A stretch of DNA of 64,000 bases from Candidatus Heimdallarchaeota archaeon (GTDB taxonomy: Archaea; Asgardarchaeota; Heimdallarchaeia; JABLTI01), in NCBI GenBank assembly GCA_018238155.1, contig JABCTZ010000032.1:160001-224000 (forward strand). The letters run 5' to 3'. This document shows positions 46,125 to 64,000 of the stretch, piece by piece. A program made the position numbers and the translations under genes. Under the pieces are notes generated by a model. That model had not been told where the DNA came from. It saw only the letters and a list, made by a program, of their open reading frames with translations, and ran no database searches. Numbering within the stretch: position 1 is the stretch's first letter; each line of letters starts with the position of its first letter.

Positions 46125-49100
46125 CTATTCTAGTGGAACAATCGTTAGTTTTACTTTTGTTCCATCTATATCCCAATCTGATGAAATACCATCTTTCTTT
46201 GCGCCAACTTTGATAAGTGTTGATAATGTTTCTGTTTTAATGAACTCTGCCCACTTATTCATAGCATTGGTAATTTTTTCATCACCTTTATAGTAAAGTT
46301 CAATATTTTGAGTGTATTCAAGATTTGCTTCTTTCCTCATAGTTTGTACTCTCCGAACAATGTCTCGGACAAGTCCTTCTTGGATAAGTTTTGGTGTTAA
46401 TTTCGTTTTAATGAAAATCTGTCCACCATCAAAGGAAGCATCTGAATATCCTTCTTTACCACTTGAGATTATATCCAAATATTCTTCGTTAACATCAAAT
46501 ACTCCATCTTCTGTTTCTAGTTTGAAGGAATGTTTCTCTCTTATATCTGTAACCGCTTTCTGAGATTTTTCATCTGAAAGATCTTTAATTGCATTTCCTA
46601 CTACATGAGCATTTTGTTTGAACGCCGGTCCTAGAAGTTTGAATTTTGGTTTTAATTGATAGTTAACCATTTCAGAAAGCTCTACTTGGAATGTAATCTC
46701 CTTTATATTGAGTTCTTCTTTGATTTCTGTTAAAAATTGTTTAGCCATTTTTTGTTGAGCTTCAGAGCAAACAACAATCAATTCTTGTAATGGTAATCTA
46801 ACTTTGATGTTAGCTTTATTTCTTGCAGCTCTACCTGCTTCAACGATAGCAATAGTACAATCCATAGCTTTCTCAAGATGGATGAGGATTGCTTTGGGAT
46901 TTTTCTTTGGAAATGCTTCATAGTGAACGCTCAGCATTTCCTTCTTTTTCTTTCCCTTCTCTAATCTTCTAACGAGATTTTGATATAATTCCTCAGCAAC
47001 AAATGGGATAAAAGGTGCGATGATCTTAGTTATCCTTACAAGAGTTTCATACAATGTAGCAAGAGCGTCTTTTTTATCTTTAGTTATTTCTGAGTTCCAG
47101 AATCTTCTTCGTGATCTTCTGATATACCAATTGCTCAAATCTTCAACAACGAATCTATCAATTGCTGCTGCAGCTTTATGAGATTGGAATTCATCTAAAT
47201 TTTCACTTACAGTAACAACTAAAGAATTCAATTTAGAGATTAACCATTGATCTAAAACTGATCTGTCATTTAATTTACTCTCAATAGTTCTTGGATCAAT
47301 ATCATCAATATTGACATTTGTTACAAAGAAGGAATAGACATTCCAGAGAGTGCTGAAAAATCTTCTTCGTGTATCTTCGATAACTTCATTTGAGAAACGA
47401 GTAGGATTCCAAACCGGCGATGAGAAGAAATACCACCTCATTGGGTCTGCTCCTAAAGTATCATAAACCGAAGAAGGGTTTACAACATTTCCAATATGTT
47501 TGCTCATTTTAACTCCTTTCTTGTCAAGAACATGGCCCATAGTTAGGCAGTTTAAATAAGCCGGTTTATTGAAAACAGCAGTACTAATTGCTAGCAAAGT
47601 ATAAAACCATCCTCTTGTTTGATCAATAGCCTCAGTAATAAAATCTATAGGATAATGCTCTTCGAATTTCTCTTTATTTTCAAAGGGATAATGCCATTGA
47701 GCAAATTGAGATGCACCGGATTCATACCAACAGTCGATTACAAAAGGTTCTCTCTTCATCTTTTTACTACATTCGGGACAGAACAAGTCAATTTCATCTA
47801 TCCATGGTTGGTGTAGCTCGAAATCTTCTGGAAGTTCTTTTTTCATATATGACTTTAATTCTTCCACTCCACCAATACAAACTGTCTTATCACAAGTACA
47901 CATCCAAATTGGCAAAGGTGACCCCCAGAATCGCTCACGGCTGAGTGCCCAATCAACAATATTATCTAAGAAATCACCAAAACGACCGTGTTTCAAATGA
48001 GCAGGAACCCAATTGATTTGTTCATTTGTAGCAAGAATTTGCTCACGCAATGTACTCATTCTAATAAGCCAAGCTTCTCGAGCATAATACATTGTGGGTG
48101 TTTTGCATCTCCAACAAAAACCACTTGTATGTTTTGATGTTTTTTCTGTAATTAAACGCTCATCATCTCTAAGTACTTTAATGATAAGTTTATCCGCATC
48201 TTTAATGAACATTCCAGCCCAAGGAGTTATTTCTTCTGTAAAGGTTCCATTTGTTTTGACGGGTTGTAAGAATGGAAGGTTCTTTTGTAATGCAAGTTCG
48301 TAATCTTCTGGACCAAATGCTGGCGCTGTGTGAACAATACCAGTTCCATCTTCTGTACTAACAAAATCAGCTGTAACTACTCTAAATCCTTTCTTTGCTT
48401 CTTTCGCAGGAAGTTTTGCATATGAGAATAATTGTTCATATCGCATTTCTTCCAAATCTTTTCCTTTCATTTTTTCTATTACTTTATAATCATTATTTGG
48501 AAATATTGTAGAAAGTCTATCTTTTGCGAGAATGTACATTTCATCTTCACGTTGGATTTTAACATAATTGATATCTTTTCCAACTGCGAGACCCACATTA
48601 GAAATTAATGTCCATGGAGTTGTTGTCCAAGCTAAAAAGAAGGTGTTTTTTTCTCCTTCTTTAGTAAACTTAATTGTGATTGATGGATCACTTGTTTCCT
48701 TCAACCCTTGTGAATACTCGTGACTACTTAGAGTTACCTCACATCTCGGGCATGATGGAATTACTTTATATCCTTTAATGAGGAGTCCTTTGTCCCATAA
48801 ATCCTTCAAACTCCACCAGACGGATTCAATATAGTTATCCTCCATGGTAATGTAGGCATTATCCATATCGATCCAGAAACCAACTCGTCTGGTCATCTCT
48901 TCCCAATCGCTAACATATTTCATAACTGACTTTCTACATCTTTGATTGAATTTCTTAATACCATAATCAAAAATTTCGGTTTTTGAATTTAATCCCAATT
49001 CTTTCTCAATTTCAATTTCTACTGGTAGACCATGACAATCCCATCCTCCAATTAGAGGTGAAACAAAGAAACCGTTCATAGATTTATAACGAATATAGAG

Positions 49101-50280: not shown

Positions 50281-50706
50281 ATGTCATTATGGAAAAATAA
50301 AACTAACAGAACAATATTGATCTCCTCAATATTTCTAGTGCTTGTTTTAGCCTTAATTATTTTCATATCTGTTTACGATGTAGAGAATGAACCATTAATT
50401 GGTTTAATGTGGTTATTTAGTAATGCTGGTGCAATAATAATTGTCGGACTATTGTTCTGGATACTGTATTTTAATCTTTTACTCCTCGTTGGAAGTATCC
50501 GTGAAAAGATGGATGCACTCCCTGGTTGGACTGAAATTGTCATTTGTGCACTCGTTACATTACTACCTGCAATATTCCTTGGGAATTTTGATAACTTCTG
50601 GAAACCCTGGATTGTTTTTGGTATCACTGCTTTAGGTGTAATCCTAATTTCACTATGGTTCTTAATGAGTTCAACAGAAAGAGAAGAATCACCCACGAAA
50701 TCATAA
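50281..50706 (+). CDS. Four-TM hypothetical membrane protein
   Basis: Four hydrophobic helices; REK...PGWTE loop; GGAG upstream. Confidence 0.8.
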   Translation: MSLWKNKTNRTILISSIFLVLVLALIIFISVYDVENEPLIGLMWLFSNAGAIIIVGLLFWILYFNLLLLVGSIREKMDALPGWTEIVICALVTLLPAIFLGNFDNFWKPWIVFGITALGVILISLWFLMSSTEREESPTKS

Positions 50707-50707
50707 G

Positions 50708-50729
50708 AGATTCACAATTGAATCTTTTT
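50708..50729 (+). terminator. Hairpin plus U-tract after the membrane protein gene
   Basis: AGATTCA-CAAT-TGAATCT followed by TTTT. Confidence 0.55.
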
Positions 50730-50793
50730 CCCCTATTTTTAATAATATCAAGTATATATTGTAAGTAATTTCTTTGTTTCTATTCACTCTTTA

Positions 50794-50808
50794 GGGAAAA
50801 TTTATTTA
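50794..50808 (+). promoter_or_regulatory. BRE/TATA-like promoter for the leader of the SBDS-exosome operon
   Basis: GGGAAAA-TTTATTTA; implies a transcription start near 50832-50835. Confidence 0.5.
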
Positions 50809-50834
50809 CTAATAGATTTCTCATTTCTCTTGTA

Positions 50835-51034
50835 AGACAAAAAACCCCTAAATATCGGTCTTCACTTTGACTGAAAACTGCTATGCGGTATTCGAATTGC
50901 TCTTTAGATTAGACCGAGTCCCAAAATCCTTAATCATCTATTCCCACACATTCGGATTGGATTTTTATGGAATGAACTTTTCATTGGAAAGCTAATAGGG
51001 ATTCCAAGGATGATTTTGTCTGAAGATGGTTAAG
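50835..51034 (+). ncRNA. Candidate structured RNA (long 5' leader or stand-alone ncRNA)
   Basis: Nested helices 50835-42/51014-21, 50846-50/50996-51000, 50855-61/50911-17 and 50923-29/50959-65, plus an 11-bp pairing 50929-39/51024-34. G-U pairs favour the + strand. Confidence 0.5.
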
Positions 51035-51080
51035 TAAGTAAAAATCAACATAAAAGCTGTTTGAAAGGAAAGATGTCAAA

Positions 51081-51818
51081 ATGTCCTATGATTCTGGTGA
51101 AAGAAGGCAATTTATTGATTTAGAGAAAAAAGCTCTTGTTAGATATGTCTATAGAAACCAAAAGTTTGAGATCATTGTTGATCCAGAACTGGCTTTAAAT
51201 TACAAGAAAGGAGCGGATATCCCTCTTTCTGATATAGTTGAAGGCTTTGTTGTTTTTCACAATGCATCCAAAGGCTCGAAAGCTTCAGAAGTTATTTTGG
51301 AGCAAATATTTGAGTCGAACAATAATGAAGAAATTGTTAAGATTATTCTCACAAAAGGTGCATTACAACTTACTCAAGCTCAACGAAAACGTTTACTCAA
51401 AGATAAAGAAGATGCGATTATTAATTTCATTCACATTCATTGTGTTAATCCACAAACAAATAAACCTCATCCTCCTGCAAGAATTGAGGCTGCAATGGAT
51501 GAAGCTGGAGTACATATCGATTATAATCTAGCCCCTGAAATACAGGCAAAAGAAGTTATCAAACAAATTCAAACTATCATTCCAATAAGATTGGAATCCG
51601 TTGTTTTAGCGGTAAAAGTTACTCCTGATTTCACTGGACCTGCTTTTGGTATAGTGTCTGGTGCAGGTGAACTCATTGAAGATCAATGGGGTGATGATGG
51701 GGTTTGGTATGCAAAAGTAGAAATGCCCTCTGGCAAACAAGCTGACTTTCTTGATAAGATTAACGCTTTAACTAAAGGTAAAGCTGAAGTGAAAATTGTT
51801 GAAAGAAAGAGTGAATGA
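51081..51818 (+). CDS. sdo1: Ribosome maturation factor SBDS/Sdo1
   Basis: KFEIIVDP, LQLTQAQR, NPQTNKPHPPARIEAAM and IIPIR motifs. Confidence 0.97.
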   Translation: MSYDSGERRQFIDLEKKALVRYVYRNQKFEIIVDPELALNYKKGADIPLSDIVEGFVVFHNASKGSKASEVILEQIFESNNNEEIVKIILTKGALQLTQAQRKRLLKDKEDAIINFIHIHCVNPQTNKPHPPARIEAAMDEAGVHIDYNLAPEIQAKEVIKQIQTIIPIRLESVVLAVKVTPDFTGPAFGIVSGAGELIEDQWGDDGVWYAKVEMPSGKQADFLDKINALTKGKAEVKIVERKSE

Positions 51819-61804: not shown

Positions 61805-61905
61805 GGATCCGTAGCGCAGTTTGGATAGCGCATCTGCCTCCTAATGTAAAACTATAAACAGGAGAAAGTAGAGGGTCGTGGGTTCAAATCTCACCGGATC
61901 CGCCA
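61805..61905 (+). tRNA. tRNA-Arg(CCT) with a 23-nt intron at 37/38 (61844-61866) and encoded CCA
   Basis: Acceptor GGATCCG/CGGATCC; D stem GCGC/GCGC; anticodon stem TCTGC/GTAGA; T arm GTGGG-TTCAAAT-CTCAC. Bulge-helix-bulge: CTCC/GGAG helix with TA^A and AA^A bulges. Confidence 0.95.
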
Positions 61906-62742: not shown

Positions 62743-64000
62743 TTGGAATTTGTAAAAGTATTGTTAGTTGACGATGAAGAAAATCTCTTACAGATTACTA
62801 AACTCTATCTAGAAAAAACTGATAGAAAATTTTTGATATCTATTGCTAAATCAGCAAAAATTGCTCTGAATTTATTAGTCAAGGAACCTTTTGATATTAT
62901 CATATCTGATTACAAAATGCCTGAAATGGATGGATTAGAATTTCTAGCACAAATCAAAGATCAAGGTTACAACATTCCTTTCATTATTTTTACCGGTAAA
63001 GGGCGCGAAGAAGTTGCTATTCAAGCACTTAATCTTGGGGCAGAGTATTATTTACAAAAAGGTGGTGACCCTAAAAGCCAATTTAGAGAATTAATCAACT
63101 TGATTGAAAAATCTGTTGAAAAAAGAAAATCTGATATCTCTGTGAGAAAGAGTGAAGAGAAATTCTCGAAAGCTTTTCAATTTAGTCTAAATGGTATATC
63201 TATTATCCGTTTTAGTGATCAAGTATTCTTAGATGTAAATGAGAACTTCATTAAAACTATGGGTTACTCGAGAGAAGAAATTATTGGCAAAAAGTCAAAT
63301 GAATTGAATATTTGGGCTAGGAAAGAGGATTATGAATTTTATTATAAACAATTAATTGAAACAGGAGAAATATTTGATTTTGAAACATTGATAGTAGGAA
63401 AAAATGGTCGTATTATTCCCTTACAGATTTCTGCAACTTTGATTGATATTGAGGGTGAGTTATGTATTCTCTCAATTAGTAGAGATGTTCTTGAGCTCAC
63501 TAAGGCATTAGAAGATTCAAAAGAAAATGAGATTAAATATCGTTTATTATTTGAAGAATCGCCCATTGCTATGTTTAATCTAAATATGTTTGATGTAAAA
63601 AAACACTTAGAAAAGTTTAAAATTACCGATTCGTCTCAATTTTTCGGTGCAATTAGAATACAGCCATCCTTTTTAACTGAACTAATTTCAATTGTAAAGA
63701 TATTAGCTGTAAATAAAACCGCTTTTGAATTAGTAGGTGCAAATAATAGAAATGAGCTTCTCCAATACTTCAATCATGAATATATTATGAAAAATATTGA
63801 CTTGTATTCAAAATTGATTTTACAATTGCTTTTAGGTAATACTCGTTTTGAGGATGAGATTTCAGTTATTAGTTTGAATGATGAAGCGGCAAAAATAATT
63901 CTTAGAGTGTCATTGGCACCAGGATATGAGAAAACGTGGTCTAAAGTTTTTCTATCTGCAGTAAACGTTACCAAAAGAGCACAAGCAGTGACTAATTTAA
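62743..64000 (+). CDS. Receiver (REC)-PAS-PAS signalling protein, probably a histidine kinase; runs off the window
   Basis: Not in the ORF track; translated by hand from TTG at 62743: VKVLLVDDEE...IISDYKMPEMDGLEFL...FIIFTGKGREEVAIQALNLGAEYYLQKGGDP, then PAS (DVNENFIKTMGYSREEIIGK). The frame is open to the window end. Confidence 0.92.
   Translation, partial: MEFVKVLLVDDEENLLQITKLYLEKTDRKFLISIAKSAKIALNLLVKEPFDIIISDYKMPEMDGLEFLAQIKDQGYNIPFIIFTGKGREEVAIQALNLGAEYYLQKGGDPKSQFRELINLIEKSVEKRKSDISVRKSEEKFSKAFQFSLNGISIIRFSDQVFLDVNENFIKTMGYSREEIIGKKSNELNIWARKEDYEFYYKQLIETGEIFDFETLIVGKNGRIIPLQISATLIDIEGELCILSISRDVLELTKALEDSKENEIKYRLLFEESPIAMFNLNMFDVKKHLEKFKITDSSQFFGAIRIQPSFLTELISIVKILAVNKTAFELVGANNRNELLQYFNHEYIMKNIDLYSKLILQLLLGNTRFEDEISVISLNDEAAKIILRVSLAPGYEKTWSKVFLSAVNVTKRAQAVTNL

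Follow-up and report, generated by a model that had tools for sequence, protein, structure and literature searches.

A candidate structured RNA family upstream of the SBDS-exosome genes in one family of Heimdall-group archaea

The DNA analysed here, referred to as the window, is a 64-kb stretch (G000:C41:160001-224000, G000 being the present genome) of a 4.08-Mb assembly in 46 contigs. Unprefixed positions are counted from its first letter; G labels denote genomes and L labels contigs, L086-L092 being metagenome copies of the RNA locus. A gap of 374 bp, as recorded in the original prediction, lies at 50707-51080 between two plus-strand genes. The upstream one (50281-50706) encodes a 141-aa membrane protein without Pfam or NCBIfam match. 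This protein is syntenic with the RNA and SBDS throughout the family and carries an N-terminal WKNKxNRTIL motif, common to a protein of contig L093 (see below). The downstream gene, SBDS (51081-51818; Pfam and NCBIfam matches), is the first of a gene row that continues with Rrp4, Rrp41, Rrp42, L37ae, a Brix-like protein and Pcc1, and then Elp3, as assigned by Pfam and NCBIfam. The Brix-like product is an rRNA-maturation protein, and the operon has RNA decay and ribosome biogenesis as its theme. The G+C content of the gap is 34%, similar to that of coding DNA, neighbouring gaps having 20-25%. At the end of the upstream gene, direct reading of the plus strand identified an A/T-rich hairpin followed by T5 (50708-50729), in agreement with the terminator-like hairpin proposed behind that gene. 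It was not called by a GC-based terminator scan, a sigma-70/GC-rich scan being uninformative for an archaeon. Most relatives have a T run of 5-8 after the upstream gene, in several behind a short hairpin.

A BRE/TATA-like element predicting a start at about 50833 had been placed at 50794-50808. The element is present on the plus strand, within the DNA of the gap that is best conserved by BLAST (query 71-159), and the covariance-model match to the RNA begins at 50832. The distance from the end of the TATA element to the first base of the RNA is 22-26 nt in the eight homologs where it is measurable, and the closing helix of the RNA, P1, begins at +4 of the predicted transcript. We propose that the RNA is transcribed on the plus strand from this conserved promoter, with a start at ∼50832. 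Just 5′ of the BRE/TATA element, a conserved box, CACTCTTTAGG (50785-50795, plus strand), is kept across the family. A motif scan found it at no other promoter-like site of the genome, nor were further credible sites found there for a regulon sharing either this box or boxB, a conserved hairpin of the RNA described below.

An element of ∼190 nt is located 40-60 nt upstream of SBDS in 12/12 genomes of one Heimdall-group family, f1, and on eight metagenome contigs as well. The covariance model of the RNA, R1, matches the present genome with 170.9 bits (E 1.6e-34); this is the sole credible match, and the RNA is single-copy. A weak second match was rejected as noise, lying inside a dehydrogenase ORF. 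In each of the 11 other family genomes R1 has a match ahead of SBDS (E 1e-17 to 1e-38), as it does in seven of the eight metagenome contigs, which had been located via SBDS proteins 73-87% identical. The remaining contig, L090, is too diverged for R1; its promoter, its helices and their order are the same by eye and by fold. On L088, where another gene in divergent orientation takes the upstream place, the promoter and the RNA are still joined to SBDS. The RNA is always on the same strand as SBDS. Membrane gene, gap (350-420 nt) and SBDS are syntenic in all other members of the genus and in the single genome of the second genus. BLAST recovered the gap in some relatives only, the promoter and the 5′ end being best conserved. 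The comparison of related SBDS upstream regions, which had been suggested as a check, finds an element that is conserved and covarying within one family.

Beyond the family, the search was made with R1 only. Among 71 further genomes of the class, and ∼123 more sampled across the phylum, no match was better than E 3e-4; these weak matches (E ≥ 3e-4) were dismissed as noise, since none adjoins SBDS. The gap ahead of SBDS at 18 loci outside the family measures only 0-205 nt, which is too short for promoter plus RNA. Sequence-pattern scans of the genome and metagenome contigs recovered only the same genomes. On contig L093 (1121-1500; JGI Ga0115863_1010430), from a distant lineage with an SBDS 48% identical, a 380-nt gap precedes SBDS; the gene before this gap encodes a membrane protein of 139 aa with weak homology (E 7e-6). 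R1 does not match this gap, and its fold has a z of +0.13. Contig L092 (ENA scaffold_100318) has 556 nt without a called gene between SBDS and the RNase PH gene (1533-2088), in the place taken by Rrp4 at every other locus; this stretch could be a broken or uncalled Rrp4.

The covariance-model match in the window is 194 nt long (50832-51025, plus strand, as are all features of the RNA given below). Blocks common to the gaps of relatives are the promoter, a start at GUAAGGCAAAAA, two boxes (boxA and boxB) and a closing UUUUUGCU. In the architecture that we propose, P1 would join the 5′ and 3′ ends of the RNA and close two domains that abut without a linker: domain 1 consists of P2 with a variable hairpin, P2a, and the unpaired boxA, and domain 2 of P3, inside which lie P4, a long hairpin of variable sequence, and P5/boxB, a conserved one.

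All the complementary segments listed in the original prediction are present where it had placed them. The proposed closing helix, AGACAAAA/TTTTGTCT, is P1 and is kept with compensatory changes in relatives. Its 5′ strand, AGACAAAA (50835-50842), pairs with the 3′ strand, UUUUGUCU (51014-51021), in which the U run is only four long here; 88.5% of alignment cells are paired and four pairs have double changes. The present genome has an A-U pair where most have G-C, and the helix differs in L087 (GAAAGAAAAAC/GUUUUUCUUUC) and in L089 (CAAAAAAACUCA/UGAGUUUUUUUG). We tentatively regard P1b as a weak extension of P1, with which it is continuous: CCU (50847-50849) pairs with AGG (51007-51009) in 64% of cells, and L089 has CUCA/UGAG instead. 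The TCGGTCT/AGACCGA pairing corresponds to P2 (UCGGUCU, 50855-50861; AGACCGA, 50911-50917), which is likewise kept, with 93.9-98.7% of cells paired and compensatory changes in 4/6 pairs. Relatives have variants such as CAGCC/GGCUG, UCGAUC/GAUCGA and UGGUC/GACCA. Inside P2, the ACTGC/GCGGT pairing is part of P2a (ACUGC-UAU-GCGGU, 50877-50889), variable in sequence and recurrent at a fixed place: most homologs have there a hairpin of unrelated sequence, which is missing in G010 and G011. Domain 1 also contains boxA (50897-50910; consensus UUACUCUUUCGAUU), which is conserved, unpaired and located 5′ of the P2 3′ strand. Its columns are invariant in alignment A2, with variants only in the most distant copies, and no consistent pairing partner for it was found across the homologs.

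Domain 2 departs from the drawing first proposed. P3, which is new relative to that drawing, was identified by RNAalifold and abuts P2 directly: GUCCC (50918-50922) pairs with GGGAU (50998-51002). It is 76-80% paired, with a double change in 6/6 pairs of a 19-sequence alignment, and is represented in G007 by CCCUUGA/UCAAGGG. The previously proposed CCCTA/TAGGG helix is only 56% paired, with 144/500 shuffles as good, and was rejected; its G's belong to P3, where they pair with GUCCC 3′ of P2. P4 (50923-50965) is a long hairpin that every homolog folds at this place from a different sequence; its base, AAAATCC/GGATTTT, had been correctly singled out as a helix, being variable and recurrent at a fixed place. 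Two aligned segments of P4 are 91% and 76% paired, with double changes in 11/11 pairs. The AATGAA/TTCATT pairing did not hold, retaining 6, 5, 4, 4, 2, 2, 2 and 3 of its six pairs across relatives. TTCATT forms part of a conserved hairpin absent from the earlier drawing and newly found here, P5/boxB (CUUUUC-AUU-GGAAAG, 50977-50991), which is nearly invariant within the genus. L091 and L086 retain the P5 stem under an altered loop, and L090 has it rebuilt as UUCUCUUC/GGAAGAGAA. A switch pairing between boxA and the 3′ half of boxB is kept as no more than an idea: it amounts to 6 bp in some lineages, 9 bp in L090 and 3-5 bp or another register elsewhere.

The original prediction further included, as its central feature, an 11-bp pseudoknot between 50929-50939 and 51024-51034, which we rejected. 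This pairing decays without compensation, to 11, 8, 4, 4, 1, 0, 2 and 2 of 11 pairs: complete here, it falls to 8/11 and 4/11 in the two nearest species. The energies of tail-to-P4 duplexes are mostly no better than those of shuffled tails (48/200 for the present genome). Downstream of the RNA, a 55-nt A-rich and T-poor spacer (51026-51080) has a small variable hairpin and includes a Shine-Dalgarno-like AAAGGAAAG (51064-51072); most relatives have GGUGA before the ATG.

Considered by itself, the single sequence folds no better than expected by chance. Comparison with shuffles, proposed earlier as a check, gave no excess of folding: the plus strand has a z of -1.08, with 29/200 shuffles equally good, the bounded 194 nt alone a z of -1.87 and the minus strand a z of +0.39. 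Evidence for structure came from the homologs. RNAalifold on a plain MAFFT alignment, which was not fitted to the model, found P2, P3 and P5. With P1 and P4 added, 86.0% of cells in this alignment are paired, compared with 38-58% for slid partners, and 14 pairs have double changes. In the 19-sequence alignment, which is model-fitted and therefore leans towards R1, 86.3% of 685 cells are paired, compared with 35-56% for slid partners. Double (compensatory) changes affect 26/37 pairs of this alignment and 0/500 shuffles attain any of five measures, counts that are inflated by relatedness since all homologs come from one family. Folded singly, 20 sequences recovered the same architecture, with z of -1.1 to -4.6. 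G-U pairs are many in the 19-sequence alignment, including an invariant one in P5, which fixes the plus strand; the orientation of the promoter agrees with it. Every frame of the RNA region contains stops, and a small protein gene was rejected, no frame being open across 19 homologs. These comparisons establish conservation, covariation, strand, a fixed promoter geometry and linkage to SBDS; that the locus specifies a real structured RNA on the plus strand is, in our judgement, highly probable.

To judge from sequence searches, this ∼190-nt RNA of one Heimdall-group family matches no catalogued RNA family. An Rfam 15 scan of the 64-kb window at gathering scores, a check also foreseen at the outset, reported only a tRNA at 61805-61902 and no family for the RNA. 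The tRNA match covers 98 nt (49.8 bits) for a model of only 71 positions and presumably contains an intron. A permissive Rfam scan of 50600-51200 returned only noise with E > 2, mostly on the minus strand, and Rfam on 11 homolog loci gave nothing at E ≤ 1. The proposal of a hitherto undescribed structured RNA, beginning at the position indicated by the promoter, is thus upheld, by an element that is conserved, covarying and without Rfam match.

Individual RNA classes were also considered. A tRNA-like or T-arm structure was rejected, a tRNA-model match being absent even at E ≤ 10; the bases 3′ of a UUCGA-like pentamer form covarying pairs with the P2 5′ strand, which is distant, instead of pairing within a local stem. 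No likeness to the tRNAs of the genome was found beyond a 12-nt antisense word in the variable P2a. There, 50874-50885 is a perfect antisense match to positions 24-35 of tRNA-Gln(UUG), encoded at G000:C41:228195-228270, 4 kb past the end of the window (blastn-short E 0.013 against 20 tRNAs). This match is probably due to chance, as P2a is different in the nearest species. RNase P RNA was rejected because the genome has a normal archaeal copy elsewhere (G000:C24:104036-104373, 125.5 bits), and a C/D or H/ACA guide because snoRNA models gave only minus-strand matches of 14-20 bits, below their cut-offs of 48-60. A sequence-level search with up to three mismatches found no match of boxA or boxB, sense or antisense, in 16S rRNA or the assembled part of 23S rRNA. 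The 23S match (G000:C1:134052-136836) stops at model position 2717/2987, at the contig end; the 16S gene lies 62 kb upstream on the same contig, and at this distance the two rRNA genes are unlinked.

What is this RNA? We somewhat favour the reading that the mRNA of the SBDS-exosome-L37ae-Brix operon would carry it as a structured 5′ leader, i.e., that it is co-transcribed with these genes, since an oligo-T terminator is absent between RNA and SBDS. The start and end of the transcript and its co-transcription with SBDS are what we infer from the following features. Among 16 homologs, the spacer between RNA and SBDS is 40-59 nt long with T runs of at most three, and no second promoter-like block conserved in it was found. 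The only terminator-like feature is the U run in the P1 3′ strand, 2-8 long overall and 2-4 long in four copies, G000, G010, G011 and L086, which have no T5 or longer from the RNA end to the ATG. P1 pairs past the U run covary (GC/GC versus GAC/GUC), so that the functional RNA extends past this run. T5 also occurs inside the RNA, at 50961-50965 and in the P4 loop of G004 and G005, and must there be read through. The T5-8 run behind the upstream gene in most relatives counts on the same side. Transcription would most likely continue through the 55-nt T-poor spacer into SBDS.

How such a leader might act is a matter of speculation. The two invariant boxes may be recognised by an RNA-binding protein encoded in the operon, or by some other factor, and a factor reading the boxes could conceivably set mRNA stability, premature termination at the P1 U run or the processing that frees the RNA. 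That an operon product exerts feedback is a tentative proposal that we hold to be rather less than probable; it is conceived purely by analogy with the bacterial pnp, rne and ribosomal-protein leaders and with archaeal L7Ae. The fold does not overlap the translation start: it ends at 51021, the Shine-Dalgarno-like sequence is at 51064-51072 and the ATG at 51081. A translational switch is unlikely, as the fold stops short of the Shine-Dalgarno region. A riboswitch-like expression platform, in keeping with the riboswitch-like option of the original prediction, is likewise not supported, the fold ending 59 nt before the ATG with no contact to the Shine-Dalgarno region. A riboswitch is not supported on the grounds that the alternative fold proposed for it, the pseudoknot, is not conserved, that boxA-boxB pairing is inconsistent and that the operon is non-metabolic.

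Alternatively, a separate gene with a promoter of its own could produce the RNA as a small non-coding transcript, ending at or just after the P1 U run and serving in trans as scaffold, guide or decoy; SBDS would then be transcribed from a second, weak promoter in or overlapping the spacer. We consider this possible, though doubtful. The promoter of the RNA is strong and conserved, P1 joins the +4 region to the 3′ end, as is typical of stable RNAs, and the two nearly invariant boxes resemble recognition sites rather than plain structure. The fold is too distant from the Shine-Dalgarno sequence and the ATG for a direct effect on translation, and the spacer, or a stretch overlapping the P1 3′ strand, could conceal a weak A/T-rich promoter for SBDS. 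L088, L089, L090 and L091 have runs of T6-T8 at the P1 3′ strand or directly behind it, and these may terminate a separate RNA. However, the four copies without T5 before the ATG, the internal T5 runs that need read-through, the covarying P1 pairs past the U run and the failure to find a conserved second promoter in the spacer all argue against a separate gene, and no complementary target was found in rRNA or in genome motif scans. Leader and separate RNA could both hold if the leader is processed.

A related and unlikely reading is that the RNA is a stable, lineage-specific partner of the adjoining ribosome-maturation or RNA-decay machinery. SBDS, the exosome cap, L37ae or the Brix-like protein would bind the boxes of the RNA, which would be either set free from the operon transcript or terminated separately. 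If true, archaea closely related to eukaryotes would possess a new class of ribonucleoprotein component.

We also considered that the element might be what remains of a cassette, mobile or of CRISPR origin (an orphaned ARAMP-tail RNA, for instance), that landed before SBDS by chance. Confinement to one family is what an insertion would produce. The RNA is single-copy, however, and occupies the same fixed site in every member of the family, under purifying and compensatory selection, with no Cas7 or Cas5-HD gene adjoining it at any locus. Identity with ARAMP-tail RNA was rejected, the regions upstream of rpl37e (G000:C39:∼63760-63900, plus strand) and ABCE1 (C39:∼46950-47090, minus strand), taken for comparison, being unlike it in sequence and fold and missed by R1 at E ≤ 10. 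These two regions have in common a GC-richer block of ∼110 nt with CUGAGA-type motifs, unrelated to the SBDS RNA. A cassette origin is thus very improbable.

Just as improbable is a regulatory region acting at the DNA level, in which transcription-factor sites, including a CTCTTTAG-type box at -40 and +70, would be the functional elements and the helices incidental. In the present genome the upstream box and boxA do have the 8-mer CTCTTTAG in common. In other lineages both contain ACTCTT, and a 6-8-mer is common to the two in every lineage. This repetition upstream of and inside the RNA could reflect a repeated protein site or coincidence. Compensation in 26/37 pairs and hairpins rebuilt from unrelated sequence are, on the other hand, unexpected for protein-binding DNA, and the G-U pairs are strand-specific. 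Finally, helices arising by chance in A/T-rich spacer DNA, a reading that would accord with single-sequence z of only -1.1 to -1.9 and with three of the originally proposed pairings decaying like neutral sequence, are already refuted, barring alignment artefacts, by the comparative data: the element is conserved throughout the family, it covaries, and 20 sequences independently fold into this one architecture.

Returning to the favoured reading, a leader of the SBDS-exosome operon would stand before genes for core RNA-decay and ribosome-maturation factors that are common to archaea and eukaryotes. An RNA fixed at this operon and supported by covariation offers a concrete handle on how Asgard archaea control their SBDS-exosome genes, and a defined molecule for binding tests with SBDS, exosome cap proteins, L37ae and the Brix-like protein. 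Being restricted to one family, it has limited reach, and for now it is of value as a new, well-defined RNA family rather than as a mechanism. In a limited literature search we came across no description of a long structured leader or dedicated RNA at an archaeal exosome/SBDS operon, of autoregulation of an archaeal exosome operon, or of such an RNA among Asgard non-coding RNAs; an iCLIP study of the Sulfolobus exosome mentions neither autoregulation nor SBDS.

To our knowledge, few cis-regulatory RNAs, and few classes of riboswitches among them, have been described in archaea. The RNA resembles riboswitches built on multi-helix junctions in its conserved unpaired loop and junction nucleotides, its variable peripheral hairpins and its closing P1. 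It differs from them in having no visible expression platform, a non-metabolic gene context and no Rfam match. In bacteria, the leaders of pnp, rne and ribosomal-protein mRNAs are autoregulatory structured leaders of RNA-binding proteins. In archaea, L7Ae binds a k-turn in its own 5′ leader (PMC5539422, PMC6298567). Compared with the L7Ae leader, the SBDS RNA is far larger, with ∼190 nt and five helices; compared with autoregulatory leaders in general, its fold is clear of the Shine-Dalgarno sequence and start codon, and neither a k-turn nor an rRNA mimic was found in it. Like such leaders, it is a conserved structured RNA located between a promoter and an operon of RNA-binding products, and it is probably carried on the same transcript as SBDS, Rrp4, Rrp41/42, L37ae and the Brix-like protein.
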